From a virus: 64,000 nt of DNA. This document shows positions 19,066 through 40,220 of this stretch, piece by piece. A program made the position numbers and the translations under genes. Every line of letters starts with the position of its first letter. Position 1 is the first letter of the stretch. The stretch lies in the IMG/VR virus record IMGVR_UViG_3300042894_006927, positions 15,790-79,789 of that record, one strand, 5' to 3'. Below the pieces are notes generated by a model. That model worked only from the letters and a program-made list of their open reading frames with translations, was not told the origin of the DNA and did no database searches.

Positions 19066-21176
19066 GTGCCGAATTAAACGAAAACGAGTTCGATTTATCG
19101 CAAAAAGCCGTTGGTATTTCTATCGGTGGTTCGGGTAGTGGTCAAACTCAAATCGGTGGTAGTGGTGGAAGCGGAAGCGGTGGTAGTGGTGGAAGCGGAA
19201 GCGGTGGTAGTGGTGGAAGCGGAAGCGGTGGAAATGGTGGAAGCGGAAGCGGTGGTAGTGGTGGAAGCGGAAGCGGTGGTAGTGGTGGAAGCGGAAGCGG
19301 TGGAAATGGTGGAGAAGGTGGAAGCGGTGGTAGTGGTGGAAGCGGAAGCGGTGGTAGTGGTGGAAGCGGAAGCGGTGGTAGTGGTGGAAGCGGAAGCGGA
19401 AGCGGTGGTAGTGGTGGAAGCGGAAGCGGTGGAAATGGTGGCGAAAATGGAAATGGTGGAAATGGTGGCGAAAATGCAAATGGTGGGGATGAAGAAGATG
19501 GCGAAGAAAACCCTGCCGAAGAACAAGAGGAAGGGGATAGCGAAGATGAACAAAATTCGCAAAACGATAGCAGATTAGGGCAACGATGCGTAATAATTTA
19601 TCCCAAAGAATTTGCGGGGCGGTTGGGTAATATAAAAAGGGTTATTTTTAAGGGTAAATCCGACACGCCAATAGAACCGAGAAACATAGATGGGTACACT
19701 CTTACATATCCATCAGAAACCGAATTTACTTTGTTTGAGGTAGAATATATCAATGAAAATGGGAAGTTAGAAGAAGGTTCTTTTATGGACATTGATGTTC
19801 TATTTGAAAATCAAGAATTTTTTGTAGTCGTTGACGGGGGTCAAGTATTAGAAGCGGTTTGTAGCGGTTTTGTTGAATCTGATAGAAACCCATATAAATT
19901 TTTTATTAAAACGGAAAATGGGCAAGTTTTTCCTGCGTTTAGGTGCTTTGTTCAACCCCAAGAAAAAAATGAAAACGAAAACGATGCCGAAGATGGGGAA
20001 AGCGATGAAGATGAAGATACCCAAGATAATGAGCAAGAAAATTCTATTGTAGGAAAAGAATTTGTTTTATTACGGGATAGTTTTACACACAAATCGGGGG
20101 AAAGGGGAACTATTCTTTCGTCATTAGGCGAGAGAATGCTTGAGGGCACGGAAGAATATGTTGTCAATGGTCATCGGATTTTTTACCCAATAGGAACATA
20201 TTATAGTGCTTATCGTGTCGCAATAGGAGATAGCAACTTTATTATCAACGACTTTGATTTTGTATTTGTAGGCGAAGAAGTAAGTTTTGTGATAAGTGAT
20301 GCAAACGAATATGGTTTACAAGAGGCAATCTATAATGGTTATAGTGTATTTGGATTTATTGAAGATTCACCACAAAATTTTTTGTTAGCATTAGATAGCG
20401 ATAACCCATCGTTGATTAAAACCGATATGTGTTTTGTTTCGTTAGAAACGATTGCGATTAGAAACCAAAGGCAAGATAGCCAAGATGATGATGATGATGA
20501 TGATGATGAGCAAACACCCGAAAACGAAGAAAATGTTTTTGTGGCATCCTTATTTTGGAATTATGTACTTAATGAGAGGAAATTAAGCGGGGATGTTTTT
20601 ACGGCTGATATAGACGAAAATTTTAGAGAGGTTACAAACGAGTTGTCTTTCCTTCGTAGTTTTCCCGCAAGTTTGTATGATGAATCAGTAATTTATAGCA
20701 AAGAAACGAAAGAATACGGGTATCTTACAACAAACGAATTTGATGTAAACACAATTCAAACCATTGATTATTTTGCAGTTACCAATTTCAATTTGTTTGA
20801 ATCGGTTATTTACCGAAATAATCCAAAAGAATTAAATTTTACCTATGTTGCCCTAAAGTATGTTTTGGACAATTTAAAAAGAAAAATGTTTTTTGTGCCA
20901 ACATATCAAGTAAATGAGGAATCGTTCTATATTATGGTTTACGAAAAGAGTGAGGATGAAATTATTGTAGTTACCAATTACGAGAAATTTAGCGTTAGAA
21001 AAAACGGGTTGGGCGATTATTTACACTTAATTGTTCATTTAATGAATTGGGCATACCTTAATAGGTTTGAACAAAATTTGTTTTTAGATTTCAAAAAACA
21101 AACCCAAAATTTACTCAAGCCAAACATTTTTTACGCAAAAATTTTTGAAGATTATTGCAAGGCACTTACAATCTAA
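19062..21176 (+). CDS. Acidic multidomain protein with N-terminal Gly/Ser-rich linker
   Basis: (GGSGGSGS)n tract, then beta-rich domains separated by D/E tracts. Confidence 0.7.
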   Translation: MSAELNENEFDLSQKAVGISIGGSGSGQTQIGGSGGSGSGGSGGSGSGGSGGSGSGGNGGSGSGGSGGSGSGGSGGSGSGGNGGEGGSGGSGGSGSGGSGGSGSGGSGGSGSGSGGSGGSGSGGNGGENGNGGNGGENANGGDEEDGEENPAEEQEEGDSEDEQNSQNDSRLGQRCVIIYPKEFAGRLGNIKRVIFKGKSDTPIEPRNIDGYTLTYPSETEFTLFEVEYINENGKLEEGSFMDIDVLFENQEFFVVVDGGQVLEAVCSGFVESDRNPYKFFIKTENGQVFPAFRCFVQPQEKNENENDAEDGESDEDEDTQDNEQENSIVGKEFVLLRDSFTHKSGERGTILSSLGERMLEGTEEYVVNGHRIFYPIGTYYSAYRVAIGDSNFIINDFDFVFVGEEVSFVISDANEYGLQEAIYNGYSVFGFIEDSPQNFLLALDSDNPSLIKTDMCFVSLETIAIRNQRQDSQDDDDDDDDEQTPENEENVFVASLFWNYVLNERKLSGDVFTADIDENFREVTNELSFLRSFPASLYDESVIYSKETKEYGYLTTNEFDVNTIQTIDYFAVTNFNLFESVIYRNNPKELNFTYVALKYVLDNLKRKMFFVPTYQVNEESFYIMVYEKSEDEIIVVTNYEKFSVRKNGLGDYLHLIVHLMNWAYLNRFEQNLFLDFKKQTQNLLKPNIFYAKIFEDYCKALTI
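19155..19487 (+). repeat. Coding tandem repeat, 24-bp unit GGTGGTAGTGGTGGAAGCGGAAGC (GGSGGSGS), about 11 imperfect copies
   Basis: Seen directly. Confidence 0.9.
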
Positions 21177-21709: not shown

Positions 21710-23092
21710 ATGACCAAGTTAGAATTACAAAACAAAATAGCCGTTTTAGAAAAAAACATTTCAAAAACGAAGAATCCTACATCGTTGGCTATATTGCAAA
21801 AAAACATTGAAGATGCACGAAAAAAACTTGCGGCACTTGAACAAGGCACTCCCGCACCCGCCCCAAATGGCGGTTCTTCTGAATTGGAAAAACTTTATGC
21901 TCAAAGGGAAACATTAAAAAAGGGTTTAAGTAGTTCCAATCCCGTTGTTCAGAAATCAGCAAAAGCGGCACTTCCAAAAGTTGAAGCCCGTATTGCTGAA
22001 TTAGAAGGGGCATCACCCGCCCCCGCACCTGCGAAGCGTATGCCAAAATCAAAGGCAGAAAAACCCGCTAAAACAACCGCAAAAAGAGGTCGCAAACCAA
22101 AGGCAGAAACCCCCGCAGAGGAAAAACCTAAAATCAAGCGTGGTCGTAAGCCAAAAGCCGAAACCCCCGCAGAGGAAAAGCCAAAAGTCAAGCGTGGTCG
22201 TAAGCCAAAAGCCGAAGCCCCCGCAGAAATACCCGTAGCAGCCGTAAGGCGTGGTCGTAAGCCAAAAGCACCTACCGAAACCCCCGCAAAAGCCCCCGCA
22301 AAGCGTGGTCGCCCCGCCCTTCCAAAAGGTGCAAAAAGCCAAGAAGTTTCAATAGATTCTCTAACTAAATTGGCAAATGCGTTAGTTGAATTTTGCATTG
22401 AAAACGGCATATCAAACCCAAGCGTTTCTGATTTGCAAGGAATCCTTAACCTTCTTGACAAAGGAAAGGCATTAAAATTTGCCAAAGGCGGTAAAATTTC
22501 CAAAAGCGGCAGTTATCTCTCTAAATGGCAAATCAAAGAAATTCTTACCGATGGCGGTATGAAAATAGGCTCTGATGAATTACTTTCGGGAGTTTGGTTA
22601 AAAAAAAAAGATAGTGGTGTAGCCCAAATGCGAATGGGCGGTGAAGTTGGGTACTTCGTTATTGATGATGATATTCTTGATAGCGGAAAGTCCGTAATGC
22701 TCGGCAATCGTAGAATTTCTGCAAAAAACAAAAAATTTCAAGGCGTTTTTGAAGGAAAAATGGTCGGTGGCGTAATGAAAGTTTACGACTACGATGATGA
22801 AATGTGGAAAGTAGTTAATCCCGATGAATGGCAACAAGCGTATGCCGAAGGTGGCGAGGTTGGAAGATTTCATAGGGGAAGGTCGGTTATGGTTGCAGAA
22901 GAAAATGACAACGAAAACTACGACAATTTTAGAGGTAAAGAGTTGGTAATAACCGAAAAATTTACAAACTCTAAAGAAAACCCATATTTTGATGAAGGGC
23001 TTTCGGGTATGGCACTATATCATTTAATGGAGAGAGAAACGGGGAAAAAAATTCCTTTTGCCCTTTATGATTATGAATTGGAAGCATACTAA
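21710..23092 (+). CDS. Putative DNA-condensing core protein with AT-hook-like repeats plus xxGG-delimited modules
   Basis: Five (K/R)RGR(K/P) repeats in an Ala/Pro/Lys-rich region; FAKGGKI, MRMGGEV, YAEGGEV. Confidence 0.7.
   Translation: MTKLELQNKIAVLEKNISKTKNPTSLAILQKNIEDARKKLAALEQGTPAPAPNGGSSELEKLYAQRETLKKGLSSSNPVVQKSAKAALPKVEARIAELEGASPAPAPAKRMPKSKAEKPAKTTAKRGRKPKAETPAEEKPKIKRGRKPKAETPAEEKPKVKRGRKPKAEAPAEIPVAAVRRGRKPKAPTETPAKAPAKRGRPALPKGAKSQEVSIDSLTKLANALVEFCIENGISNPSVSDLQGILNLLDKGKALKFAKGGKISKSGSYLSKWQIKEILTDGGMKIGSDELLSGVWLKKKDSGVAQMRMGGEVGYFVIDDDILDSGKSVMLGNRRISAKNKKFQGVFEGKMVGGVMKVYDYDDEMWKVVNPDEWQQAYAEGGEVGRFHRGRSVMVAEENDNENYDNFRGKELVITEKFTNSKENPYFDEGLSGMALYHLMERETGKKIPFALYDYELEAY
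22082..22320 (+). repeat. Coding repeat with 54-bp period encoding KRGRKPKAETPAEEKPK
   Basis: AAGCGTGGTCG at 22136 and 22190, with further degenerate copies. Confidence 0.85.
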
Positions 23093-23094: not shown

Positions 23095-25527
23095 ATGCAA
23101 CACCAAGATTCATACATTGTCGTAAAGGAATTTACTGACAACGGAAAAAAAACGAGAGAGGTTATTGCAACGGGAGTAACCAAGCAAGGCTTTATTGATG
23201 CCTACACCGAAAAAGGTTGTGTAATGAGAGGGGGCGAAAACCCCCATTTTGAGGACATTTATTCGGGTATAATTTACAAGTTGGAAAAAGAATTTGAGCA
23301 AGGCGGTCAAATTGATAGGGAAAGGGATATTCAGATTGCCAAAACAATTTTGATGCAAATGGGTGGCTCAAACCGACTGCAAATGTTTACGGGGGCATAC
23401 AATTTTGTGGCAGTACCCTATGGGGTTTCATTTCGGATTAAAAACCGAAGCGTAAACTATGTGAAAATTGTGCTGAACGCAATGGACACTTACGATATTG
23501 AATTTGGGCGAATTAGTGGGGTAAACTACAAGATTGTAAAAGAATTAAGCGGAATCTACAACGACCAATTAGTTGAAATTTTTACCCGTTATACGGGAAT
23601 GGTTTTGCGTTTAAGAAAAGGCGGTGCAATTCAAGGGGAAGAAAATGCCGAAATGGTTATGAATCAAAACCTACAAATTCGCCACCACACCGAAGAATTA
23701 GAAGAAATCCTAAAATCGGGAAAGGAAGTTCCTGCTTGGGTTGTTTCAAAAGTTAGCAGGGCGGCAGATAGTATGTCAGATGCCACACACTACCTTGAAG
23801 GAACACCCGATAAAATGGAAAGGGGTGGGAATACAAGAATTGTAGATATTTCAAAACTGAAAACTTATGTTTTGACTTATATTCCCGTTTTTGACATTAA
23901 ACGGGCAATGCAAATAAAGCAAAAAGCGGTTTACGCAGAAAGCGAGGAAGATGCCATTGCCCAACTTCCAAGAACGGCAAAAGTAATTTCAATAAAAGTT
24001 ACTTCGGGCGGTGGTCGTGGCATACCCCAACGACAAAGGGGGCGTGGAGAATCACAATCTCAAAAAATTCGGAAAGAAATAAAAGCGTTAAAGGAAACAT
24101 TGCCCTTTTTGGAGGGTAAAGACAAAAAACAAATTGAAGATGAAATCAAAAACCTAAATGATACATTGGATGAGATGGATACATTGGATGAAATGAGGGC
24201 GGAAGGACAATATGCCGAAGGCGGAGGGGTTAATAAAATGGCAATGGGCGGTGAGGTTTCCAAACAATATGAAGACATACCTAATACAACATACCAACTA
24301 AAGATTAAAGTTTATTATGACAAGGGGGGTATGAACTATTATTCGGGGGGGACAAACAAAAGAGGTTATTACCTTTCAGTTACACCCGTTCAAATTGAAA
24401 GGCAAGGAAATAATGTGATGATTGAATCATATACGGCATTTTCGGGCATAAAAAAGTTAATTTTAGAAGTAGAAAGACAAAGCCCAAAATCGGCTGAAAA
24501 AGCAAAAGAACTTGCCGAATCTTCAATTTCCGAATTAAAGCAGTATGTTTTAAATCAAATGATTGAAAGAGGCGAAATACCACAAGCCCTTCCTATGCCC
24601 GAACCCGAACCAATGCCCGATGAAGATGAAATAAACCCCGAAGAAATTAGGGCTGAAATCGTAGCGTTAGAGCAAGTTTTAGAAGTGTTGGAAGGAGAGG
24701 ATAGGCAATCAATCCAAGAGGAAATCGAAATACTAAAACTTGCATTGGAAGGAATGGGCAATTATGCCAAAGATGGGGATAGCATAAAAAATTGGTACAC
24801 AAGCACATACCCTTCCGATGATTTGGGCGAAGAATTAAACCCCGATGCTAAATTTAGTGGATTAGAAGAAAATTTGGCAGACATTTACACTTATTTGGGT
24901 GTTGCCGATTCGGTTGTTCGTGAAAGAGTTTTTGAAAGATATTCTGAAATTTTTAATAAGCCATACGAATATATTTACGACAAGTGGGTTAAATCGGAGA
25001 AATTTGCCAAAGGTGGCGGGATTGGTGAATTGCCCCCAAAAGGAGAATTAACCAATAAAGATAATTTTCTGCTCAAATATGAAAAAAAGGGTGGCGACTA
25101 CGAATTTTACATTTACAAACCCGAAACAAAAAAAGTTAGTGGATATAATCAAGTAAAGCATATTTGCGTAAATTCAGATTGCCCACACAAAATGACTTAT
25201 GAGCAATTTTTAAATTACTTGTATGCAGAATTGTATTTAGATAATATGAAATATGCCAATGGCGGTGAAATTTTTGTATGCCCCGTTGGAACTGAAATCC
25301 AAACTTTGATTTTTGACAAATCAATGTTTAACCTTCGGGAAGCAAAAGCGTGGGCAAAGAAAAACAATTTTGAAAACGCTTATGTTGATGGCAAATTAAA
25401 CACTTTGCGAATACGACAAAAAGACCCCGCTATGTTTACCGAAGATGGATTTAGAACAATTCAATTAAGGCAAGGCGTTCAAGCAGTAATTGGTTGCCCG
25501 AAGCGTAAAATCAGCAGAAAAAAATGA
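23095..25527 (+). CDS. Polyprotein of about 8 small modules separated by xxGG motifs
   Basis: FEQGGQI, LRKGGAI, MERGGNT, YAEGGGV, MAMGGEV, (YAKDGDSI), FAKGGGI, YANGGEI. Confidence 0.7.
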   Translation: MQHQDSYIVVKEFTDNGKKTREVIATGVTKQGFIDAYTEKGCVMRGGENPHFEDIYSGIIYKLEKEFEQGGQIDRERDIQIAKTILMQMGGSNRLQMFTGAYNFVAVPYGVSFRIKNRSVNYVKIVLNAMDTYDIEFGRISGVNYKIVKELSGIYNDQLVEIFTRYTGMVLRLRKGGAIQGEENAEMVMNQNLQIRHHTEELEEILKSGKEVPAWVVSKVSRAADSMSDATHYLEGTPDKMERGGNTRIVDISKLKTYVLTYIPVFDIKRAMQIKQKAVYAESEEDAIAQLPRTAKVISIKVTSGGGRGIPQRQRGRGESQSQKIRKEIKALKETLPFLEGKDKKQIEDEIKNLNDTLDEMDTLDEMRAEGQYAEGGGVNKMAMGGEVSKQYEDIPNTTYQLKIKVYYDKGGMNYYSGGTNKRGYYLSVTPVQIERQGNNVMIESYTAFSGIKKLILEVERQSPKSAEKAKELAESSISELKQYVLNQMIERGEIPQALPMPEPEPMPDEDEINPEEIRAEIVALEQVLEVLEGEDRQSIQEEIEILKLALEGMGNYAKDGDSIKNWYTSTYPSDDLGEELNPDAKFSGLEENLADIYTYLGVADSVVRERVFERYSEIFNKPYEYIYDKWVKSEKFAKGGGIGELPPKGELTNKDNFLLKYEKKGGDYEFYIYKPETKKVSGYNQVKHICVNSDCPHKMTYEQFLNYLYAELYLDNMKYANGGEIFVCPVGTEIQTLIFDKSMFNLREAKAWAKKNNFENAYVDGKLNTLRIRQKDPAMFTEDGFRTIQLRQGVQAVIGCPKRKISRKK

Positions 25528-26147
25528 AAAAAGAAAAATTCGCTGCGATTGCACTTGCCCTTACCGCAGGAGTTTTTTTGTTGGGAACAACGATTGGTTT
25601 TTTAATTCCACAATTAAGGCGAAAGGTTGAAAAAAAATCATTGAAAAAACTTCTATTTGTAGGCGATAGTCAAACCAAGCCAAGTTACTCGTATGCCAAC
25701 AAATTGTCTGCAAAATTGGGTTCGATGTTTTCTAAAATAGCGGAAAACGGGAAGCAAACCGAGTGGATGAAAAACCAAATTTTAAACACCGATATTTCGC
25801 CCTATGATGCTATTTTTGTTTTTGGTGGTGGTAACGATATTTCAGCGAATAGGGTTGGTAAGGCACAACAAAACCTTAATGCCATTTACTCGTATGTCAA
25901 AAATAACGACAAGATTTTGGTTGCGGTTTCCCCACCATCAAAAGCCCTTTCAACGATTCACAATGAAATCCAAAAAAACCAAAATTTAGAATTGCGGGAT
26001 TTTGTTTTAAACCATCCCCTGCCCGATTTGAAAATTGATGCCACCGAAATCACAAACAAATCTTTTTTTAGTTCCGATAACATTCACCTAAATCCCGCAG
26101 GGCAGAATCACCTTTCAAACATTATTTATTCACGATTAAAGGGTTGA
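25524..26147 (+). CDS. Membrane-anchored SGNH/GDSL hydrolase
   Basis: N-terminal TM; blocks FVGDS, ENG, GGGND, DNIH. Confidence 0.85.
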   Translation: MKKEKFAAIALALTAGVFLLGTTIGFLIPQLRRKVEKKSLKKLLFVGDSQTKPSYSYANKLSAKLGSMFSKIAENGKQTEWMKNQILNTDISPYDAIFVFGGGNDISANRVGKAQQNLNAIYSYVKNNDKILVAVSPPSKALSTIHNEIQKNQNLELRDFVLNHPLPDLKIDATEITNKSFFSSDNIHLNPAGQNHLSNIIYSRLKG

Positions 26148-26863
26148 TTATGTCAGCAATAACGGATTTTTTTGATGTTATTTTAAGGGGCGAAAGCAGA
26201 ACCTATGACGACCATAATTGGTATGTTTCGGGTGGAAGATTAAGGGGCTACATAAAAGGCAGAAACACAAACCCGTACCCTTTACTGAAAAAGGATTTGA
26301 GTAAATACTCATTCGGAGAAATTAAAGCGTTCCAATCAAGGGATAGGGATGCCAATGGTCAATTATGGGCAACGGGCAGATACCAAATTATTCCTTCAAC
26401 ATTGCGGGGGGTTCAAAAACAAGTTGGATTGCCCGATTCAGCAATTTACAATTTAGAAAATCAAGATAAATTAGGGTTTGCTTTATTGGTTGAAAGGAGA
26501 AACACACGAAATTACCTTTATGGGAAAGTTGCCGATACGCTTGAAAACCGACAATTAGCGGCACTTGATGTTGCAAAAGTTTGGTCAAGCGTGGGAGTTC
26601 CTTACCGAGTTTTTGGTGGAAGGGGAAGGTATGTTGAAAAAGATGAATCTTACTACAAAGGCGGTGGCGACAAGGCGAGTGTTCCAAGTATAAATGCCCA
26701 ACAAGCATTACAAAAACTGCGAAATTCATTACTAAACAATCAAGTTCCCCAAGCACCGAAAATAAAGCGAGATTTTACTTGGGCTTATTACATTTCGGGT
26801 GGGTTGCTTTTAAGTTCAGCAATAGCATTTTATTTTATCGCTAAACGCAGGAAAAATAAATGA
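26144..26863 (+). CDS. Lysozyme-fold muramidase/transglycosylase with C-terminal membrane anchor (virion-associated)
   Basis: ILRGES (catalytic Glu), ATGRYQII, ENQDKL, WSSV; TM followed by KRRKNK. Confidence 0.75.
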   Translation: MIMSAITDFFDVILRGESRTYDDHNWYVSGGRLRGYIKGRNTNPYPLLKKDLSKYSFGEIKAFQSRDRDANGQLWATGRYQIIPSTLRGVQKQVGLPDSAIYNLENQDKLGFALLVERRNTRNYLYGKVADTLENRQLAALDVAKVWSSVGVPYRVFGGRGRYVEKDESYYKGGGDKASVPSINAQQALQKLRNSLLNNQVPQAPKIKRDFTWAYYISGGLLLSSAIAFYFIAKRRKNK

Positions 26864-26914: not shown

Positions 26915-27304
26915 ATGGCAAAACTACCTCACATTTACTTTCTTGAGCAACTTGATTTGACCGAACAAGACATTCTTTCGGAGTTCAAAAATTATCGTTT
27001 AGAAAACGCAAAAGCCAAAAAGTTTGTAGAATCAAAAGATTTGACAAACGCTTTAAGTGTTTCAAACCGAATTATTGAAAAGGTTATTCCAATGCTTGAC
27101 GAAGAAGATTTTTCTGATGAAGAAATTGAAAAAGCCAAGCAAGATGCCCTTTCGCAATTTTCAACAAAACAAAGTTCAAATGGCGAAGCCAATGATAACT
27201 CCGAAAATTCTGATTCAAAAAATGATTTAGGAATTTTGGGTTGGGTTTTGGGCGGTGCTGCCCTACTTGGCGGTGCTTTTTTCTTATTCAAGCGTAAAAA
27301 ATAA
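26915..27304 (+). CDS. Tail-anchored membrane protein
   Basis: C-terminal LGILGWVLGGAALLGGAFFLF-KRKK. Confidence 0.7.
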   Translation: MAKLPHIYFLEQLDLTEQDILSEFKNYRLENAKAKKFVESKDLTNALSVSNRIIEKVIPMLDEEDFSDEEIEKAKQDALSQFSTKQSSNGEANDNSENSDSKNDLGILGWVLGGAALLGGAFFLFKRKK

Positions 27305-27879
27305 TGCTCGTTTGTAATTATAGGAGTTTTGAAGGTCTGCCCCTGCCGAATGTTAGAACAATATCGGGTGGGTTAGGTCGGTATGGACTTGACATAATTA
27401 CAATGGTGGCACGAAATGAAACGGGAACGGCTCAACAAGTTGATTTCTTTTCCCGTAGCAATCCCGCAGGGGTTCGTGTCAGTAACGATGCAATTTCTAT
27501 GAGTGGGCTTATTACCCGTACCCAAGCAAGTCCTCTTGTTATTACAAAAGGGAAATTCTTTGCAAGTGGCGAAAATTCTATTGAGCAACAAAATCAACCT
27601 TTGCTGATTTACACAAAAACCGCATCGGGGGCTTACGACCAAATTCAAATGAATCCGAGTGCGTACCAATCTTCTCTGCGAACAAGTCAATACCCTATTG
27701 ACATTCCATTGAAAGCAATTATTGATAGCCAAAGTAGTTTCTCAACAACCATTTTGCCTAACACTACAATCCGTATAGTGTTAAAGAGTTTCCAACCGCT
27801 TAATAAGTCGAAGGATTTACGGGCATTTCGTGAATTTATGGGAATAAAATGGCAGAAACAAAAGAAATTTGGATTTTAG
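27304..27879 (+). CDS. Capsid-protein paralog (candidate second or minor single jelly-roll)
   Basis: Aligns by eye along its length with 30284..31039 (RNETGTAQQV/TNSTASTQDV, PAGVRV/PAGTSV, QASPLVI/QNSPMMV, PSAYQSSL/PLAFRSSL, IIDSQS/VINQDS). Confidence 0.6.
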   Translation: MLVCNYRSFEGLPLPNVRTISGGLGRYGLDIITMVARNETGTAQQVDFFSRSNPAGVRVSNDAISMSGLITRTQASPLVITKGKFFASGENSIEQQNQPLLIYTKTASGAYDQIQMNPSAYQSSLRTSQYPIDIPLKAIIDSQSSFSTTILPNTTIRIVLKSFQPLNKSKDLRAFREFMGIKWQKQKKFGF

Positions 27880-28262
27880 AAACCGCAAAAGCATACGAAG
27901 AAAAACTTGCCACACGCATCCGCAAGAATACTTCATTGAAAAGCCGTTATCCCAAAATGCTAATTAAAGCAAGGATTGACTTTGTTTTTTTTGTCGTTTC
28001 CTTATATTTCGGGCTTGACAAAAATTGCTTTTATGAAAAGAAACGGCAGGGCGGACTTCCATCAAATTTTTCAGAAATTCGGGGGTTTGCATTTGCATTG
28101 CTAAAGCAACGATACAACTACTCAAACGAAATGATTTCATTACACACAAAATTTTCACAAAATTGGATTGCAAGGTGCATCTACAAGTTTTCGATTTCGG
28201 AAAATTCCGAGTTTCAAAAATGCGAACTGATTTCAAAACAAATAGCCAATTCTAACTTATGA
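27849..28262 (+). CDS. HTH protein resembling the DnaA C-terminal domain
   Basis: VSLYFGL..EIRGFAFALLKQRYNYSNEMIS..SQNWIARCI. Confidence 0.45.
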   Translation: MAETKEIWILETAKAYEEKLATRIRKNTSLKSRYPKMLIKARIDFVFFVVSLYFGLDKNCFYEKKRQGGLPSNFSEIRGFAFALLKQRYNYSNEMISLHTKFSQNWIARCIYKFSISENSEFQKCELISKQIANSNL

Positions 28263-29155
28263 GAGGTCGTAAAAAAATAATTGTTGACAAAGCGGAAGAT
28301 GCCACAATTCTTTCAGAACCCGAATTGATGAAGCCAATGGGGGCGACACAATCGCCTTTGCTTGACCCAATTTCTACCGAAGCATCGGGAGAAGGTTCGG
28401 GAAAAGCAAAAATCCTTCAAAATTTAGGGGGGGCTACTTCTGACGACACCTTTGATGAAAACGATGATAATTTTGAAAGTAACCAACCCGAACCGAAAGT
28501 TAGAAGCCAAAAAAAGCAATCGGCAAGTTTTAATTCTGAAAGCGTAATTTCCGACAATAATTTTCCCGAACCACCCGAATCAAATTTTGATGAACCCGAT
28601 GAATTTGATGAAGAATATGAAGAAGGGTCTAACGACCTTCCCGAAGGATATTTAGACAAGGAAATTCCAAAACAAGCGAAATTCATTACCGACCTTGTTA
28701 CTAATTTGCTTGAAACATTGATTTTGCAGAAATACGCTATTGATGTTGATAGCGTGAGGACTTCCTTAATGGAAATTTCCGATATGCAACAACAAGTTCC
28801 GAATGTAATCAAAGGTCTTAATGACTACAATATGGGATTTAAAAATGCCATAGAGTTTACCAAAGATGAAAAGAAACTTATTGTTACGGGATTGGTAAAC
28901 ATTCTGAAAAAATACCCTGCAATTTCAGACAAACTAACGGGGGAAGCACAATTAGGTTTGGCTATTTTAACGATTGGATTGACTAAATTAGGCGTTTTAA
29001 AACAAATGAGAGATAAGGGAACGGAGATTTTAACCAACATAAATGCCACTTTAAATCAGTATCGTGAATTTTACAAAGCCAAAACCGAACAAATGCGTAA
29101 TCAACAAGCCCAAGCAGAGCAAAGCGGAAACGCAAGGGCAGAACAATATGGATAA
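28259..29155 (+). CDS. Hypothetical protein, acidic N-terminus and hydrophobic helix (possible packaging accessory)
   Basis: Immediately upstream of the ATPase; QLGLAILTIGLTKLGVL. Confidence 0.55.
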   Translation: MRGRKKIIVDKAEDATILSEPELMKPMGATQSPLLDPISTEASGEGSGKAKILQNLGGATSDDTFDENDDNFESNQPEPKVRSQKKQSASFNSESVISDNNFPEPPESNFDEPDEFDEEYEEGSNDLPEGYLDKEIPKQAKFITDLVTNLLETLILQKYAIDVDSVRTSLMEISDMQQQVPNVIKGLNDYNMGFKNAIEFTKDEKKLIVTGLVNILKKYPAISDKLTGEAQLGLAILTIGLTKLGVLKQMRDKGTEILTNINATLNQYREFYKAKTEQMRNQQAQAEQSGNARAEQYG

Positions 29156-29165
29156 TCTTTAGGAA

Positions 29166-30080
29166 ATGGCGATACGGAAAAGCAAACCCACAAATGAGCC
29201 GAGTAAAAGGAAATCGGATAGCCGAAGCAACGGCATATCGGTTATTACGGGTATGCAGGGCGTAGGAAAATCATTTAATCTGAACAGCCGAGTAAGGCAG
29301 TACGCCCAATTTCATAAACGCCCCGTAATTGTCTATGATGTAAACGATGAATATGCTGATTATGAAATTGTGCGTTGGTCTGACATTAAAAACCTAAAAG
29401 GCGGTATTGTTCGCAGAGTATTACCCTATAAGCAGAAGCGTAGCGGGAGTAAGGTAAGGGAAATCAAAGCGTTTGACTTGGAAGATTTAAGAAATGGTTT
29501 TTTTTATTTGCTTGAAAACTTTAAAAACGGGTGTTTAGTATTGGATGATTTTAATTCCTACACTATTTCGACACGAAAGACAAACATCCTTTCTACTCTG
29601 ACAAGGGCAAGGCATCACGGGTTGGATATAATTATTGTTTTGCAAGAACTTGGAAAAGTAACCAAAGACCTTTTTGCGAACTCGTCTTATTTCGTAATGC
29701 ACCGACAAAATACTTCGCTTGACATTGAAAGAAAAAAAATAACAAACTTTCCTTTGTTTAAGATTGCAGAGAACATTGTAAATGCTCAATTTCATTTGGT
29801 TGAGAAAATGAATGAAATGGGCAAGTTTTCATTGGAAAGCGAATACAAAATGTATCGTAGTTTTTATGTTGAAATTGATGTAAAGCGAAATAAAATCTAC
29901 GGGTGTACGAGCAGAGAAATGTTCCGAGAAGCAATTAAGAAATACCTTAAAACTTCGGACAAATACCGAGAGGTTTATGAATTTATGGCTGAAAATGATT
30001 TGAGAAAGACGAACAAAGAGGATTTGGATAGGGCTATAAATGAGGTTTCGGGCAGGTATATGGGCTTTTTTGCAGGTTAA
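29166..30080 (+). CDS. Genome-packaging ATPase, A32/FtsK-HerA superfamily
   Basis: ITGMQGVGKS Walker A, IVYDVNDEY, CLVLDD Walker B, ARHHGLDIIIVLQ (Arg finger plus Gln sensor); adjacent to the capsid gene. Confidence 0.8.
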   Translation: MAIRKSKPTNEPSKRKSDSRSNGISVITGMQGVGKSFNLNSRVRQYAQFHKRPVIVYDVNDEYADYEIVRWSDIKNLKGGIVRRVLPYKQKRSGSKVREIKAFDLEDLRNGFFYLLENFKNGCLVLDDFNSYTISTRKTNILSTLTRARHHGLDIIIVLQELGKVTKDLFANSSYFVMHRQNTSLDIERKKITNFPLFKIAENIVNAQFHLVEKMNEMGKFSLESEYKMYRSFYVEIDVKRNKIYGCTSREMFREAIKKYLKTSDKYREVYEFMAENDLRKTNKEDLDRAINEVSGRYMGFFAG

Positions 30081-30227
30081 TAATTGGGTTTTTAAGTTAT
30101 TTATTGTGTATTTGCAAGAAACTTAAAATCAGCAAGTTGCAATATGAATGGGAATGTTATATCATTTAAAATTCCTTTTTAATTCTTTTTCTTAATAATT
30201 GAAATGTTTATTCTACGGAATTGAGTG

Positions 30228-30235
30228 TAAATTTG
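30228..30235 (+). promoter_or_regulatory. Bacteroidota -7 element for the major capsid gene
   Basis: TAAATTTG in the 200-bp AT-rich gap before 30284. Confidence 0.5.
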
Positions 30236-30283
30236 ACTGATAAATCATTTAAACACTCACTTGCGAGGTAAAACAAATCAATT

Positions 30284-31039
30284 ATGAAAAATCGTATCAC
30301 TTCTCTTGAAAATGCTATGGAACGGAATTTCCGTAACTATGGCGGCTATAATGACTTCTCTATGGGTCAGTATGGCGATGGAACATTCCTTAACGCCAAT
30401 GGCGGTGGGGCAGTTCCCGTTTCCCGTTTGAATCCAAACGCACGGCTTTACACTTTGGTAATAACCAATAGTACGGCAAGTACGCAGGATGTTATCATTC
30501 TAAACGCAGGGGATGGCGTACCTCCTACTTCTGCTTCCGTTCCCGCAGGAACATCGGTTACTTTGCAACAAAGTTCTTACAATCGGTTATTGACCGAATC
30601 CCAAAACTCTCCAATGATGGTAGCGGGTTGTAAGGTGTCGGTAAAAGATGCAAGTCAATTCAGTAATGTTTGGACTTTGGCATACCTAAATGCCGCAGGT
30701 TTGTTGCAACAAGCAACTCTTTCGCCTTTGGCGTTCCGTTCTTCTCTGCAAAACTTGGCAACGCAGATTGACCTTTCCGAAGATGATTTCCAATATGTTA
30801 TCAACCAAGATAGCCGTTGGACAATCCCCGTGAATGGCACTTCTTCCGTTTCGGGTGGAGAGAGCATCACGCTGAACTTGTTTGTTAAATCGCAAATCCA
30901 ACCTACCCGCATTTTGCAAGGGCAGAGCAATGTTTCGATTAGCAATCAAGGCGTTCCTTCGGGTTTGCCTACCCAAAAACTTGAAGTGGTGAATCGCACC
31001 ATTGCGGGGGGTATGAATGGCGGAATGTCCGTAATGTAA
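30284..31039 (+). CDS. Putative major capsid protein (candidate single jelly-roll)
   Basis: Beta-strand-rich, low-charge 251-aa protein after the packaging ATPase; has its own promoter element and a strong terminator; paralog at 27304. Confidence 0.65.
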   Translation: MKNRITSLENAMERNFRNYGGYNDFSMGQYGDGTFLNANGGGAVPVSRLNPNARLYTLVITNSTASTQDVIILNAGDGVPPTSASVPAGTSVTLQQSSYNRLLTESQNSPMMVAGCKVSVKDASQFSNVWTLAYLNAAGLLQQATLSPLAFRSSLQNLATQIDLSEDDFQYVINQDSRWTIPVNGTSSVSGGESITLNLFVKSQIQPTRILQGQSNVSISNQGVPSGLPTQKLEVVNRTIAGGMNGGMSVM

Positions 31040-31066
31040 ATTGCTCAATGGAGTAATGTCCATAAC

Positions 31067-31104
31067 AAAAGGGGGCGGGGTACTTTTGCCCCGCCTTTTT
31101 TTTT
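31067..31104 (+). terminator. Rho-independent terminator after the capsid gene
   Basis: GGCGGGGTA-CTTT-TGCCCCGCC stem followed by T9. Confidence 0.85.
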
Positions 31105-31119
31105 ACTAAAAAGAATTTT

Positions 31120-31641
31120 ATGCAACCAACATTAGTCGGCACTATTATTCAGCAAAACTTTTCGGGTGTTCAGCAACTTGCTCAAAAAATGGGCTATCCC
31201 GTTCCGCAAACGCCCCAAGAAGCACAAACTTTTTTCGTAAACCTTCGTGATAACGAAGCACCACAAGATTTTGCCCGATATGTTATGTCGGTTCATCCGA
31301 ATTGGCAACTCTTTGGAAAAAACATTTGCAACACTATGTTGCTAAACAATAATTCTCAACCTATGCAATACCGAAACGCTTGTTGCGGGTTTGTAAATGC
31401 CGATGGTAGCCAAAACGGAAATGGCAACGGAAACGGAAACGGAAACGGCAATGGAAACCAAATGCAAAATAACCAACAAACCAACCAACAAATTGAAATC
31501 CCGCAAGAATTTAGGCAGGGATTTGATTTTCTTTCACAAAGAATTGGTGAAATTGCAAGTACCCGAAATCAGAATCAGATTATTCAATACGGACTTGTTT
31601 TCGTAGTCGGATTGGTAGCGGGAAAGGTATTGTTCAAATAA
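31120..31641 (+). CDS. Tail-anchored virion membrane protein
   Basis: YRNACCG and FVNADG motifs, (GN)n linker, C-terminal TM. Confidence 0.7.
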   Translation: MQPTLVGTIIQQNFSGVQQLAQKMGYPVPQTPQEAQTFFVNLRDNEAPQDFARYVMSVHPNWQLFGKNICNTMLLNNNSQPMQYRNACCGFVNADGSQNGNGNGNGNGNGNGNQMQNNQQTNQQIEIPQEFRQGFDFLSQRIGEIASTRNQNQIIQYGLVFVVGLVAGKVLFK

Positions 31642-31650
31642 AAAAATTTT

Positions 31651-32139
31651 ATGCTTGAATATCGAAATAACAACGGAAAAGTAGGCGGTAAAATACTTGC
31701 TGAACAAGTTATGTTTAATCGTTCAAAAATGAACGAATTGATGGCTCGTTTTGGCTACAATACCGAAAATTTAAGCGATTATCAACTCGTTTCCCTTATG
31801 GGCGATTTGTCGTTTAAAAACAAGCAATTTGTTCCAACACTTGCAACCTACATAAACACTAATTTTAGGGGTTTTGTGGGGGAAATTGTAGCGGGAATTG
31901 GCGGTTTAGTAACTGCACTTGATGATGCTTTTAAAACATCAGATGATGAAACTCGGCAAACCCAAGCCCAAGCAGAATTAGAAAGGGCAAAAGCAGATGC
32001 CGAACAAGCGAAAGCAGATTCGGAACGGGCTTCTTCATCCGCAAAAATGTGGACTTATATTGGCGTTTCCGCAGTCGTTGTTATCGGTGTTGTAGCGGGT
32101 GTAATTCTTTATCGTAGAAGGTCTAAAAAATCGGTGTAA
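31651..32139 (+). CDS. Tail-anchored virion membrane protein
   Basis: Coiled coil, C-terminal TM plus RRRSKK. Confidence 0.7.
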   Translation: MLEYRNNNGKVGGKILAEQVMFNRSKMNELMARFGYNTENLSDYQLVSLMGDLSFKNKQFVPTLATYINTNFRGFVGEIVAGIGGLVTALDDAFKTSDDETRQTQAQAELERAKADAEQAKADSERASSSAKMWTYIGVSAVVVIGVVAGVILYRRRSKKSV

Positions 32140-33737
32140 TGGCTATTGACAAAGTTAAATATCCTTTTTCCGCAAAACTTGTGGAAATTATTGGTATGCA
32201 AAATGACTTTGCAAATCCTTGTCAAATTGATTTAACTGCCGATATTGCTTTAGCCAAAAAAGTATTAGAGCAGCCATCGGTAGGACTTGATTGGGGCAAA
32301 TCTTATTTTTTGTATAAATTGGGAAGTAATGCAAAAGGAGTTGATACCTTAACGGGCATACAAAAAATAACGATGCCCTCAAAGCCAACGAACAAAACGC
32401 CCGACCAAATTAGTGCCGTTTTAAACGCAATAAAAGTAAATGCAGATGATACTGCGAAAAGGTTTGGAAGCCCCGAACTTTTTGAACTTTTTACTAAAAT
32501 TTTTTACGATGAAATAACCAACGAGTGCCGAGAGCATCAAAGAAACCACGAAATTTGGACACCCATTTTAGGTGCGGATTATGTAATTCAATTTACCGAC
32601 CCGCTTTTAAAACAACGAGGGGCAACCATTGAAAGCGTTTCACCTGCAATTCGTGAGCAAATTCGCCCCGTTTTCCTAAACTTTGAAAATTCTCTACGGC
32701 ACTTAACCGCTTTAGAAAAAAAGGCGGATTATTTGGAACAAGACATTCAAACATACAATACTTGGATAAGCGAAATTGAAGAATTAACAAGGGATAATTC
32801 AAGCGATAAACTTTCTTTGGCTTTGCGTAAATATGGTTCAAGTTGTACGCCTATTTTGGCAAGAAGAAATGGCATTTTAGAGCAGGGCAGTATGGAAGCC
32901 TACCCAAGATGGGGGGGCAATAAGAATTGGTCGCAAGGTTGGCATTGTATTTTAGAGAAAGGTATGCCTAAATATAGGGCTACACATCCCGAAGCAGTTG
33001 CAGACCCGTTAGGTCAAGCACAATTTAGGGGCGACCAAATAAACGCTTTAAGCCTTCGTTTAGCGGCTTTTAAGAGTGAAAGAGCAAGGTTTAAAGTATT
33101 GCTCAAAAATGTAATTGATACTGAAATCCCGAACCAAAAAAAGGTTGTTGCGGAAAAGACAAAATTGTGGAATGACCAACAAAAGGTAATTGTAACTTTT
33201 TTAAATGGAATTGCCGATGCCGCAAGAATAGAGGCAGAAGCCGCAAATCTCCCCGCAATAATTGAAGCCCAAAGACAAGCAAAGATATTAGAAGAAGAAA
33301 CCAAGCGGCAACTTGCTTTAATTGCCGCAAAGGAAGCAAGAGAGAAAAGAACACAATCTTTGCTTATTGGCGGTGGCGTAGCAGCAGTTGGTGTGGCATA
33401 TTTTAGTACGAGGGGTGCAGGTGGTGGAAGCCGACTTGGAAACATTGCCGTAGGTGCATTGATGTTAGGCGGTTTAGGGTATGGAATTTATACATATATG
33501 AAAGCCCCCAAAGAAGTTGAGGAATTACCTACTAACGACCAACAAGCAACAATAAGTGCCAACGCTTTAGCGAGTTTGACAAGAAAAAATGCAATGTATT
33601 TTGGTAAAGTTTATGTAAACGAGAAAAGGCAATGTAGTGGCAGAATGACACTTGAACAACAAAGGGCGTGTGAATCCCAATTTACTGCGTTTTCGAGTTT
33701 TATGGGTATGCCAATGGGTTCAACGGGAAATTCTTAA
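32139..33737 (+). CDS. Coiled-coil membrane protein with two TM segments
   Basis: Long helical region; LLIGGGVAAVGVAYF and IAVGALMLGGLGYGIY. Confidence 0.7.
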   Translation: MAIDKVKYPFSAKLVEIIGMQNDFANPCQIDLTADIALAKKVLEQPSVGLDWGKSYFLYKLGSNAKGVDTLTGIQKITMPSKPTNKTPDQISAVLNAIKVNADDTAKRFGSPELFELFTKIFYDEITNECREHQRNHEIWTPILGADYVIQFTDPLLKQRGATIESVSPAIREQIRPVFLNFENSLRHLTALEKKADYLEQDIQTYNTWISEIEELTRDNSSDKLSLALRKYGSSCTPILARRNGILEQGSMEAYPRWGGNKNWSQGWHCILEKGMPKYRATHPEAVADPLGQAQFRGDQINALSLRLAAFKSERARFKVLLKNVIDTEIPNQKKVVAEKTKLWNDQQKVIVTFLNGIADAARIEAEAANLPAIIEAQRQAKILEEETKRQLALIAAKEAREKRTQSLLIGGGVAAVGVAYFSTRGAGGGSRLGNIAVGALMLGGLGYGIYTYMKAPKEVEELPTNDQQATISANALASLTRKNAMYFGKVYVNEKRQCSGRMTLEQQRACESQFTAFSSFMGMPMGSTGNS

Positions 33738-33750
33738 ATTTGAATAAAAT

Positions 33751-34731
33751 ATGCTACCAAATTACGAAATACAAATTGTGCCAAGTGGAATGACAATCTA
33801 CAATCCACCTATGTCGGATGATGCGTTTAATCCCGCCATTGGCAACATAAGCGACTATAATAAAGCAGCAAAAGAAATTTGTATAGGTGAAGGAAAATTG
33901 GCACAAAACAAACGAGATTACACGGCTTATGCGTTGCAATTAGCAAACAAAAGAGATAATGTAAGCGGTTGGAATGAGGTAATAAACGGCTTGGAAGGTG
34001 CTAAAAAAACCGATGGTTGCGAATGGGGTGCAAAGCGTGGAAGGGTTGCGGAGGTAATTCGGGTTTTAAAGCGTGAAAAAAGTGAATGGGAAAAAGCCAA
34101 AGCGGGAATTGGAACGCCCGTAGTTAGTAGTGTTGATGGTAAAACACAATTAACCGCCCCGAATTGGAATCCTACAACAGCAAATTGGGAAGCGATAGCA
34201 AAAGATTTAGGCGACAAGTTATTATCAAAGCAAGAACTTGTTTCAATCCTAAAATCAAAAATTTCTATTGAATTAGCCAAAGGAAATAACGCAGGGATAA
34301 TTTTGGCACAAAAAATTTACGATGGCTCAATAAACGGACTTGAAATAAATAAAAAGGCAGTTGCTTGGGGTGTAAAAAGGACAAGAGTAAATGCCGCTAT
34401 TCGTTTAATTAAAAGTACAATTCGCAGACCCGAAACTCTTGTAGATATTGTTTCGGGGCAACCCGTAAAAATTGATACGCCCTCTTTGGAAGATTTGGCA
34501 AAAGAAACTTCCGAAACCGAAAAAAACTTTTTTGATAAAATCGGTGATTTTTTCGGCATTTCTCCCGATGATGAAGCGGGTGATGTAACGGGTGGCAACA
34601 TTAACGGAAGCGGAGAAGGTGATAAACCAAATTACACGCCTCTTTTAGCGGGGGGCGGGGTTGTGGTAGCAATTATTTTAGTTGGTGTTTTAGTAAGTGC
34701 CGCAAACAAAGGAGTAAAACCAAAATCATAA
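33751..34731 (+). CDS. Tail-anchored membrane protein
   Basis: Internal duplicated motif (WGAKRGRV/WGVKRTRV); C-terminal TM. Confidence 0.7.
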   Translation: MLPNYEIQIVPSGMTIYNPPMSDDAFNPAIGNISDYNKAAKEICIGEGKLAQNKRDYTAYALQLANKRDNVSGWNEVINGLEGAKKTDGCEWGAKRGRVAEVIRVLKREKSEWEKAKAGIGTPVVSSVDGKTQLTAPNWNPTTANWEAIAKDLGDKLLSKQELVSILKSKISIELAKGNNAGIILAQKIYDGSINGLEINKKAVAWGVKRTRVNAAIRLIKSTIRRPETLVDIVSGQPVKIDTPSLEDLAKETSETEKNFFDKIGDFFGISPDDEAGDVTGGNINGSGEGDKPNYTPLLAGGGVVVAIILVGVLVSAANKGVKPKS

Positions 34732-35033
34732 TGAGAATAACAAACTATTCCGTTCCAAACGACGAACAAATGCGAGAAATTGAAGGTCGGTATTTTATTC
34801 CCCAAGAGATTGTTGACCAAGTGGCTTATGCGGTTAATAAGGGCAAAGAAATTGTTGAAAATGTAACTACGCCAACAAACGGAAATCAAGGTGGCGGTGC
34901 AAACAATGGAAATCAGCAGAAAAATGGCGGTACAAACATTGGAAAACCATTGCTTTATACGGGTGGTGCTATTGTTTTAGGACTTGCCGTTTATTTTGGT
35001 TACAAGTATTACACAAAAACCCTTAAAAAATGA
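34731..35033 (+). CDS. Small tail-anchored membrane protein
   Basis: C-terminal TM plus KYYTKTLKK. Confidence 0.7.
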   Translation: MRITNYSVPNDEQMREIEGRYFIPQEIVDQVAYAVNKGKEIVENVTTPTNGNQGGGANNGNQQKNGGTNIGKPLLYTGGAIVLGLAVYFGYKYYTKTLKK

Positions 35034-35206
35034 GAACATTAGACGACATTGAGCAAAAAAGTGATAAAAAAACATTGTCTGATAAAGTGAAAAATTTACC
35101 AACGAGTACAAAAATTGCGGTTGCCGTAGTTGTTTTAGGCGGTATGTTTTTTGCGTATCGAAAATTCTTTGTAAAAAAAGCAGAACCGAACATTATTGTT
35201 GACTAA
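35030..35206 (+). CDS. Small membrane protein (58 aa, not in the ORF track)
   Basis: MRTLDDIEQK..KIAVAVVVLGGMFFAYRKFF..VD*; coupled to both neighbours (ATGA, TAATG). Confidence 0.7.
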   Translation: MRTLDDIEQKSDKKTLSDKVKNLPTSTKIAVAVVVLGGMFFAYRKFFVKKAEPNIIVD

Positions 35207-36003
35207 TGGAGAACAAACTGCGGTATAGTTTGAATGTAAATTCGCCCTTTAAGGTGTTTCTTGACTTGCAAGTTAAGAAAGCACCCGTGCGAGTATTTAT
35301 CCGCATTTTTAATCCAAATTTGCCAAATACATTTGCTTATTCACGAAAGCAAGATTTTGAAGTTCCAACATCGTTCAATTACAAAATCGGAGTTCCCGAT
35401 TTTATTCCCCCGCTTGTTTTGGAAGTTTATACTGACAAAAATGAACCCGCTTCTGATTATGTAACTGCAAAATTTAGGGTTGAGGAAACGGGAAGCACAA
35501 TTAAGAGAATCCCGATGAAGCATAGGAACGCAATTAAATTTCTGCGTGAATTTTCTTTAAAGGCAGGTTTTTTAGAGCCGAACAAAACATATTCAAACGG
35601 GAAGATTCAAATTAACTATTTGCCCTACATTACTTATGAAAATGGGCAGATGCACACTACCCCCGCAAGGATTCATAAAACGGAAAATTATATTGAGGTA
35701 AGCAAGTTCCATTTTGATAGGATGCCAACACCCCGAAGAAATGCAATTCTTTTCCACGAATTATCACATAATTTTATTTCCCGAAATCCAAATTCAGAAG
35801 AAGAAGCAGACGACCATAGTGCCGACCTTTATTCTTTATCGGGGCTTCCGCCAAGCGAGTTCATTTATGGCTTTTCAACCATATTTAGGCAACACAATCC
35901 AAAAGAGTTTGCCAATATGATGAAAGACCCTAACTATCAAAAATTACATTCAATGCAAGTAAACCGATTGCGTAGAATGATTAACAAAATGTCAAACAAA
36001 TAA
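35206..36003 (+). CDS. Zincin-like metalloprotease in the virion module (candidate maturation protease)
   Basis: ILFHELSH (HExxH) followed by EEEADD (third-ligand Glu). Confidence 0.65.
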   Translation: MENKLRYSLNVNSPFKVFLDLQVKKAPVRVFIRIFNPNLPNTFAYSRKQDFEVPTSFNYKIGVPDFIPPLVLEVYTDKNEPASDYVTAKFRVEETGSTIKRIPMKHRNAIKFLREFSLKAGFLEPNKTYSNGKIQINYLPYITYENGQMHTTPARIHKTENYIEVSKFHFDRMPTPRRNAILFHELSHNFISRNPNSEEEADDHSADLYSLSGLPPSEFIYGFSTIFRQHNPKEFANMMKDPNYQKLHSMQVNRLRRMINKMSNK

Positions 36004-36005
36004 TT

Positions 36006-36713
36006 ATGGGATATTTACCATCTTTTAGACCTACTGAAATTTTTGTAACCCCAAGACAAGAGGGGGTTTTTGGAATTTCCCAAGATTCTTTTATGCAGTT
36101 TGCACAATCAACACAAGTTGGCGGAAGCGGTGGCGTTCAAACACCAAGTCAGCCGAGTAGTGGTGGTGGCGGTGGTGGAAGCGGCATACAAATGGGCGAC
36201 CAAGTTGGCATAAATCCCAATGATAATAGTGGTAGTGTAAATCCGCCCCCGCCAAGCACCCCGCCAACAAACTTTTGTCCTACAACATATTTCCCCGTTT
36301 GTGCCAATGGGCAAACTTTTGGAAATGCTTGTGAAGCAGAAAACGCAGGTTTTACTCAATACACACAAGGAGAGTGTGCCACAAATGGCAATGGCGGTGG
36401 CGATAACGGAAATGGCGGTGGAAATCAGCCCGTTTATGACCCCGAAACGGGTTGTATTATTCAAGGGTTTGATAATTTAGGCAATCCTATCTACATTGAC
36501 CAAAACGGGAATCCATCTTTAAATCCCGAAGGTTGTCAAATAAGCCCCGATTTTAATAGCGGTGGCGGTGGCGGTGGCGACAACGGGAATGGTGGCGGTG
36601 GCGGTGGAACAATTCCCGATGATGAAAAAATTATTGCTTTCGTAAAGAAAAATTGGATGTATTTACTTGCCGTAACTGCGGGAATTTATTTACTCACAAA
36701 TAAATCGAATTAA
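36006..36713 (+). CDS. Gly-rich membrane protein with Kazal-type domain
   Basis: CPTTYFPVCANGQTFGNACEA..GEC; C-terminal TM. Confidence 0.7.
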   Translation: MGYLPSFRPTEIFVTPRQEGVFGISQDSFMQFAQSTQVGGSGGVQTPSQPSSGGGGGGSGIQMGDQVGINPNDNSGSVNPPPPSTPPTNFCPTTYFPVCANGQTFGNACEAENAGFTQYTQGECATNGNGGGDNGNGGGNQPVYDPETGCIIQGFDNLGNPIYIDQNGNPSLNPEGCQISPDFNSGGGGGGDNGNGGGGGGTIPDDEKIIAFVKKNWMYLLAVTAGIYLLTNKSN

Positions 36714-36787
36714 AAAGCAATTAAAAATCAATAATAATTCAAAAAAAAACCTTTACTTTTAATCTCTAACAACAAAAACAAAACGCT

Positions 36788-36997
36788 ATGTTTGAAAATT
36801 TGAAAACTGAAAACTACATTGGTGGAATATCGGGTGGGTTAGTAGCCTACTACGGAATCCGTAAATTTCGCCCAAACACAAATGTTTACCTTCATTGGGG
36901 GGCTACTGCTTTAGCCGTATGGGTCGGTTCAAAGTATGTTGCACCACAAGTTGCCAAACTTTTTCAAGGTGGCGAAGAAGTCGCCCCCGTTGAGTAA
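36788..36997 (+). CDS. Small two-TM membrane protein
   Basis: Gly-rich hydrophobic helices. Confidence 0.65.
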   Translation: MFENLKTENYIGGISGGLVAYYGIRKFRPNTNVYLHWGATALAVWVGSKYVAPQVAKLFQGGEEVAPVE

Positions 36998-40219: not shown

Positions 40220-40220
40220 A

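Follow-up and report, generated by a model that had tools for sequence, protein, structure and literature searches.

The 64,000-nucleotide stretch of virus DNA analysed here (the window) spans bases 15790-79789 of one 79,789-bp IMG/VR virus record, IMGVR_UViG_3300042894_006927, and all feature positions below are window coordinates. On its + strand lie the genes for a putative genome-packaging ATPase of 304 amino acids (aa), a 251-aa jelly-roll protein and a 191-aa paralogue of the latter, and we take this region to be the central part of the morphogenesis module in an uncultured virus from lake water, whose genome measures at least 79.8 kb. The reading that we favor, with somewhat better than even confidence, is that of a virus that has no tail and a membrane lining, with a capsid built of single jelly-rolls and a packaging motor of the A32 type. 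It builds on what we observe here, i.e., the fold class of the ATPase, the modeled jelly-roll of the 251-aa protein together with its paralogy to the 191-aa protein, a richness in membrane anchors, a terminator, and no detectable tailed-phage hallmarks on the contig.

The putative packaging ATPase and the two jelly-roll paralogues

A preliminary description, made from the sequence alone, had pointed to packaging-ATPase motifs in this region, and these are present in the product of 29166-30080 (+ strand), with Walker A (GMQGVGKS) at residues 29-36 and Walker B (LVLDD) at residues 124-128. Family matches in Pfam and PHROG were weak and generic (Zot, AAA_22, DUF87/HerA, and phrog_2666). We rejected the phrog_2666 label, “terminase large subunit”, as not diagnostic, since this profile also matches in all 14 of the control cellular genomes. 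An AlphaFold model built with 11 homologues (predicted local distance difference test score, pLDDT, 70) consists of a parallel-sheet P-loop core and a 100-aa helical C-terminal extension, and a hydropathy scan found no membrane segment in the protein. When the model was compared with the PDB using Foldseek, the best 15 matches were all to the B204 packaging NTPase of Sulfolobus turreted icosahedral virus (STIV) and STIV2 (E 1.3e-5, probability 1.0). B204 was clearly the best match in both structure searches, and the closest structural relatives were B204 and FtsK/HerA/VirB4-type ATPases rather than terminases. As modeled, the ATPase is structurally closest to B204, the only solved A32-type viral packaging ATPase, in line with the A32-type assignment made earlier.

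At the level of sequence, a PDB search with the ATPase profile found no similarity to B204 of STIV or STIV2. The same profile aligned with the packaging ATPase of P23-77 over Walker A, Walker B, and an LT..R..G....Q segment (E 4.6e-4, probability 33%, a weak pairwise score). Specifically, the segment LSTLTRARHHGLDIIIVLQ pairs with FEVLTGGRENGHNVVFVTQ of P23-77 (E 4.6e-4) and with LLTQGRSKKIPMIILSQ of PRD1 P9 (E 0.025), again with weak pairwise scores, and the post-Walker-B segment LT..R......Q, which we take to be the P9/A32-specific motif region, is common to the ATPase and PRD1 P9. The A32-type assignment is therefore supported, because both the Foldseek matches to B204 and the profile alignments with P23-77 and PRD1 P9 point to it. 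By analogy with these systems, the ATPase may package DNA at a special vertex.

The gene at 30284-31039 (+ strand) encodes the larger jelly-roll protein (251 aa), a candidate major capsid protein (MCP). Its AlphaFold model, for which an alignment of 16 homologues was used, has a confident beta-sandwich core (residues 52-204, in blocks of pLDDT ~80-97) flanked by a conserved N-terminal helix and by disordered segments, namely a linker and a C-terminal arm. Foldseek against the PDB returned jelly-roll capsid proteins together with nucleoplasmin cores (best E 5e-4), with middling scores similar to those reached by non-viral jelly-rolls, and a structure search of BFVD was equally generic. A profile search of PDB sequences with the 251-aa family found nothing meaningful. 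The model thus supports the jelly-roll fold class, from which no specific kinship follows.

This gene had been described as separately promoted and terminated, of which the second half stands. An intrinsic terminator, i.e., a GC-rich hairpin followed by a T-run, lies 3′ of the gene at 31072-31092 (+ strand) and is solid. On the 5′ side, the 203-nt intergenic region (30081-30283, + strand) holds a Bacteroidota-type -7 box, TAAATTTG, at 30228-30235; this motif is not enriched window-wide (100 observed versus 94 expected), and the putative promoter is a motif match only.

The smaller protein (191 aa; 27304-27879, + strand) is a candidate second capsid or vertex protein. Judged by its sequence, it is a genuine but distant paralogue of the 251-aa protein, with 29% identity over 113 aa in BLASTP (E 1e-6) and a profile-profile hhalign probability of 94.6% (E 6.9e-8, 110 columns). 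The paralogy had been called clear in the preliminary description; the relationship itself is borne out, but the adjective is too strong. The protein has no Pfam or PHROG match, its homologues are metagenomic only, and its top score in an Atlas search (0.85) is at chance level. A complex prediction for the 251-aa core with the 191-aa paralogue gave a score of 0.00, which speaks neither for nor against binding.

We also noted a motif, [FY]R[NS]xxG, with five copies in + strand open reading frames (ORFs), all within the morphogenesis block (27304-42462). In 200 residue shuffles, the motif had a mean count of 0.8 and a maximum of 4. Three of the five copies, among them the ones in the two jelly-roll paralogues, are close to the N-terminus of the protein, and FRN is invariant across the 251-aa family. 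The motif could be a common targeting or processing signal.

Hallmark genes, known viruses, and relatives

When the larger ORFs (from ~150 aa upward) of the entire 79,789-bp contig were scanned against PHROG and Pfam, neither a terminase, portal, or HK97 capsid family nor a tail or double-jelly-roll family emerged. Nor was there a match in six-frame searches of the contig, for which we used the models TerL_ATPase, Terminase_6N, Phage_portal, Phage_capsid, Capsid_NCLDV, and Phage_Capsid_P3_N. The preliminary description had reported no terminase, portal, HK97, or tail genes between 25.5 and 45.7 kb; the same is true of the scanned larger ORFs of the whole contig, with no terminase, portal, or HK97 gene elsewhere on the 79.8 kb, and the 251-aa model is a jelly-roll, as had been anticipated. 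The lack of tailed-phage hallmarks on the contig weighs heavily but does not settle the matter, because the record is fragmentary and several large ORFs lack a fold assignment.

Indeed, the record has no terminal repeats, its genes are truncated at both ends, IMG/VR classes it as “linear”, and CheckV puts its completeness at 46%. With a fragment of this kind, the genome size is a minimum, and the lack of tail genes likewise holds for the sequenced part; the genome, of at least 79.8 kb, may be far larger. GC content varies between 34% and 43% across the window, and no tRNA genes were found in it. Two IMG/VR contigs of one virus (G001 and G002), considered for extending the contig through its end patterns, were rejected, as what they have in common with it is limited to 98 nt (91% identity) plus two other genes, and they carry no jelly-roll or ATPase genes. 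The 98 nt belong to the truncated gene at the contig end (window 63774-63998) and match G001:C1:15894-15991 and G002:C1:12851-12948 in this otherwise unrelated virus, for which the CheckV completeness of 10-16% implies a genome of ~300 kb.

The closest known systems include STIV and STIV2 (Turriviridae), with B204 and the penton base A223. STIV is an archaeal virus of ~17 kb with a double-jelly-roll MCP. PDB sequence searches with both the ATPase and the jelly-roll profile found no sequence-level similarity to STIV or STIV2, and the helical C-terminal extension sets the ATPase described here apart. PRD1 (Tectiviridae) offers a similar gene order, in which the packaging ATPase P9, a capsid protein, a series of small membrane proteins, a transglycosylase, and a holin are encoded in turn, but differs in its double-jelly-roll MCP P3 and its 15-kb genome.

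The likeness to Halopanivirales lies in two putative capsid proteins of unequal size with a predicted single-jelly-roll fold, whose gene block also encodes an A32-type ATPase, and in the large number of small membrane proteins. In P23-77, the order is ATPase, VP16, VP17, whereas here it is small paralogue, two genes, ATPase, large paralogue; a contiguous block of ATPase, small MCP, and large MCP, as in Halopanivirales, is not found. The genome is also larger (at least 79.8 kb versus 16-31 kb), and the hosts would be mesophilic freshwater bacteria rather than extremophiles. The lineage had been called Varidnaviria-like, a label that calls for correction: viruses with single-jelly-roll MCPs (Helvetiavirae, with the Halopanivirales P23-77, IN93, SH1, and HCIV-1) are now placed in the realm Singelaviria (PMC12714852).

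A further virus of relevance is SSIP-1, a tailless, membrane-containing phage of a Bacteroidota host, for which a PRD1-type architecture and two MCP types have been reported (PMC6356626). Its genome of 43,788 bp is the largest among the compared viruses of this build and about half the size of our contig, and its habitat is hypersaline. Homologues of the jelly-roll family or the ATPase were not found in SSIP-1 by tblastn, six-frame hidden Markov model (HMM) searches, or hhalign with each SSIP-1 ORF (best probability 5%, a single-sequence comparison being a weak test). The earlier statement that the virus is much larger than its characterized relatives is right in direction and overdrawn in extent, because it had left out SSIP-1 (43.8 kb): the excess is ~1.8-fold, not 2.5-fold or more. 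A literature search found no paper on similarly built viruses whose genomes reach 80 kb or more.

By analogy, we suggest that the virus works like the tailless viruses of the Halopanivirales and PRD1 types, and we claim membership in none of these groups. The 251-aa jelly-roll protein would form the bulk of an icosahedral shell, and the 191-aa paralogue would serve as a second capsomer subunit or as a vertex protein. The shell would assemble around a vesicle bearing the ~20 or more small anchored proteins encoded downstream. The B204/P9/A32-type ATPase would then pump double-stranded DNA (dsDNA) into the procapsid via a special vertex, so that packaging would proceed without terminase or portal and the particle would have no tail. 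Anchored cell-wall enzymes and spike proteins would act in entry, and the endolysin cassette in release.

The 251-aa family is widespread. Its HMM detected 240 representative clusters at E ≤1e-3 and 75 at E ≤1e-10 among 1.84 billion representatives, mostly of 200-250 aa, and the ten clusters that we looked up were all named “hypothetical protein” at most. In 69 diverse members, there was no PHROG match and no capsid or other structural Pfam match; one of the 69 matched an unrelated transposase zinc-ribbon domain in Pfam. IMG/VR profile scans for the jelly-roll protein and the ATPase yielded no other record, and a scan of GTDB genomes with the jelly-roll profile yielded nothing, neither a prophage nor a host link; both searches may miss close relatives. 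Seven Joint Genome Institute (JGI) metagenome contigs encode the family. On one of them (L006), the ATPase-to-jelly-roll gene order is retained at 44-52% identity. A divergent JGI relative (L008:2-1681, 43-48% identity) carries the 251-aa-type gene in two tandem copies, which is an independent duplication of the capsid-like gene. With a capsid family that has no Pfam or PHROG model, the lineage seems poorly covered by current viral marker sets.

The sequence is present in lake-water metagenomes from many studies; in the lake samples X1-X14, 97-100% of the sampled words were recovered. In addition, a lake metatranscriptome library (X19) contains contigs at ≥99% identity inside both paralogue genes, a weak hint that both are transcribed; uncovered parts are not to be read as silent, nor can depth rank the genes. 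The host is probably a member of Bacteroidota, to judge from the leaders, which are A-rich and G-poor throughout the window, with Shine-Dalgarno motifs at background level (before 5 of the 59 starts). A host probe with a sugar epimerase found nothing.

Surrounding virion-type, lysis, and replication genes

Two genes separate the small paralogue from the ATPase. The first (27849-28262, + strand) encodes a 137-aa protein with one weakly hydrophobic segment, which is kept in the contig L002. The second (28259-29155, + strand) encodes a protein of 298 aa (51 D+E versus 34 K+R) whose N-terminal half is acidic and of low complexity and whose C-terminal half differs from it. It has no family match in Pfam or PHROG, its C-terminal part is kept upstream of the ATPase in L006, and a scaffold or assembly role is our guess.

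Upstream of the small paralogue, 25524-26863 (+ strand) encodes a membrane-anchored GDSL esterase and an endolysin-like protein (phrog_90) with a C-terminal anchor, as assigned from Pfam, PHROG, and hydropathy. Downstream of the terminator, 31120-42462 (+ strand) encodes ~24 proteins, most of them small, that carry a membrane anchor at the N- or C-terminus; among them are anchored peptidoglycan (PG)-binding proteins, a zincin, and two further proteins, one Cys-rich and one very basic. Over 25.5-47.9 kb, a simple hydropathy scan places membrane anchors in 16 of the 39 ORFs, and several further glycine-rich anchors were recognized by eye.

Three paralogues of 140, 131, and 174 aa (38978-41218) each combine a membrane anchor at the N-terminus with a Gly-rich stalk and a PG_binding_1-like domain, and are possible cell-wall-binding entry or exit factors in the viral membrane. 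A 157-aa protein (37218-37691) contains 46 Lys+Arg, (AKSPAK)n repeats, and an ARMGGRM end, with a histone-H1-like composition; it is a candidate for condensing a large genome on packaging.

Further downstream, 43228-45409 (+ strand) encodes three beta-rich proteins of spike or receptor-binding type, identified through Atlas, PHROG matches to tail spike and virion structural protein, and a Pfam match to ArabFuran-catal. The first of them (195 aa, 43228-43815) has, as its Atlas language-model neighbors, C1q/BclA_C-like proteins of tailed phages (score 0.96) and is probably a trimeric receptor-binding knob. A lysis cassette follows at 45798-47946 (+ strand), where family scans and hydropathy indicate a PG-binding and amidase endolysin and then small membrane proteins.

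This late block is bordered by replication genes, with DnaG primase and UvrD upstream and DnaB, an exonuclease, and RNase H downstream. Directly upstream of the capsid module lie large polyvalent-type proteins (4174-25527). Their domains include ART-PolyVal with GNAT, a 1601-aa Sno/SNF2-type helicase, a MoxR-like AAA, and LPD23 with two HExxH zincin motifs; the block also encodes a 704-aa Gly/Ser-rich acidic protein and many x-x-G-G motifs at apparent domain borders. The contig bases upstream of the window (L001:1-16500) are a replication and modification region, with a GDP-mannose-dehydratase-like fragment at the contig start, the DnaG primase, the UvrD-like helicase, several methyltransferase-like genes, and glycosyltransferases.

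Alternative readings and implications

Several observations weigh against a tailless virus with a single-jelly-roll capsid. The virus is known from its genes alone, from which we infer the capsid role, stoichiometry, internal membrane, taillessness, and host, and the jelly-roll core of the 191-aa protein is assigned solely through its homology to the 251-aa protein. Moreover, no specific sequence or structural link was found to the capsid proteins of SH1, P23-77, or PRD1, the viruses to which the preliminary description had pointed. Of the fold comparison suggested there for the product of 30284, the jelly-roll was recovered, and no capsid chain of P23-77, SH1, HCIV, or other Halopanivirales is among the 50 best VIA structural matches of the 251-aa protein, which says nothing against a shared fold. 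By hhalign, the 251-aa family profile has no similarity to VP16 or VP17 of P23-77 or to P3 or P31 of PRD1; for VP16 and VP17, where a 69-sequence profile was set against single sequences (probability ~1%), distant homology is still possible. The contig, with both ends mid-gene, is fragmentary, and the DNA beyond it could carry further structural genes. Finally, the ATPase also clears the Pfam threshold for Zot, the spike-like gene at 43228 resembles tailed-phage proteins, the best structural match of the 251-aa protein is a penton-base domain, and several large ORFs (1470-2753, 7145-8671, 16909-21176, 21710-23092, and 32139-33737) have no fold assignment.

The penton-base match means that the jelly-roll proteins could be vertex rather than major proteins. 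In that case, the virus would still lack a tail, carry a membrane lining, and use an A32-type motor, but the two single jelly-rolls would sit at the vertices (penton or turret) or be minor capsid components, and the true MCP would be an unrecognized double jelly-roll or another fold encoded elsewhere. We regard this as unlikely, the best placed of the alternatives nonetheless. No double-jelly-roll family appears in six frames (Capsid_NCLDV and Phage_Capsid_P3_N negative), and the large ORFs without a fold assignment look helical, acidic, low-complexity, membrane-anchored, or polyvalent-protein-like; PDB sequence searches with four of the large ORFs found nothing meaningful. In addition, the 251-aa gene has its own terminator, its family is kept beside the ATPase, and both the 240 clusters and the L008 duplication fit a major structural protein.

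The incomplete contig, the resemblance of the spike-like genes to those of tailed phages, and the fact that IMG/VR classed the record as viral would also suit a large phage of the tailed class Caudoviricetes, with its terminase, portal, HK97, and tail genes on unassembled DNA and with another role for the block of ATPase, jelly-roll, and membrane genes. Such a phage would, however, have to contain ~44 kb of co-oriented late genes that end in a lysis cassette, with replication genes on either side and not one tailed-phage hallmark. To our knowledge, no role in tailed phages has been described for a B204-type ATPase that lies beside a jelly-roll gene with a strong terminator and dozens of membrane proteins. 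We therefore give this explanation little weight.

Least probable is a pleomorphic or vesicle-like particle with a Zot/pI-like assembly or export ATPase and with jelly-rolls that are DNA-binding, chaperone (nucleoplasmin-like), or surface proteins, given that B204 is clearly best in both structure searches, that the ATPase has no membrane segment, that no inovirus or conjugation genes were found, and that a lytic icosahedral virus is what one would expect from the spike genes, the lysis cassette, and the capsid-like arms at either terminus of the jelly-roll protein.

Altogether, the observation in the preliminary description is confirmed and its interpretation as a large tailless virus with an A32-type ATPase and two capsid-like paralogues is supported, with corrections on size, realm, kinship, and the fragment status of the record. 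Whether the finding extends to a widespread, undescribed bacterial virus lineage of high rank we judge to be evenly balanced. Such a lineage would build tailless, membrane-lined icosahedral capsids from its own jelly-roll family (240 clusters with no link to a named family) and would use A32-type packaging for genomes of at least 80 kb, possibly >150 kb.

The cultured tailless, membrane-containing dsDNA viruses of prokaryotes compared here have genomes of ~10-44 kb, and large bacterial virus genomes are otherwise known only from tailed phages. If the lineage is real, non-tailed dsDNA viruses of prokaryotes would no longer be limited to the ~45 kb at which their genomes seem to be capped, and large bacterial-virus genomes would be possible without the HK97, portal, and terminase machinery. 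Testable questions arise as to the capsid geometry, the condensation of the genome (with the basic AKSP-repeat protein), and the delivery of the large polyvalent proteins. Such a freshwater lineage would widen the known range of this virion architecture in bacteria, with a prokaryotic counterpart to the size expansion of the eukaryotic jelly-roll viruses.

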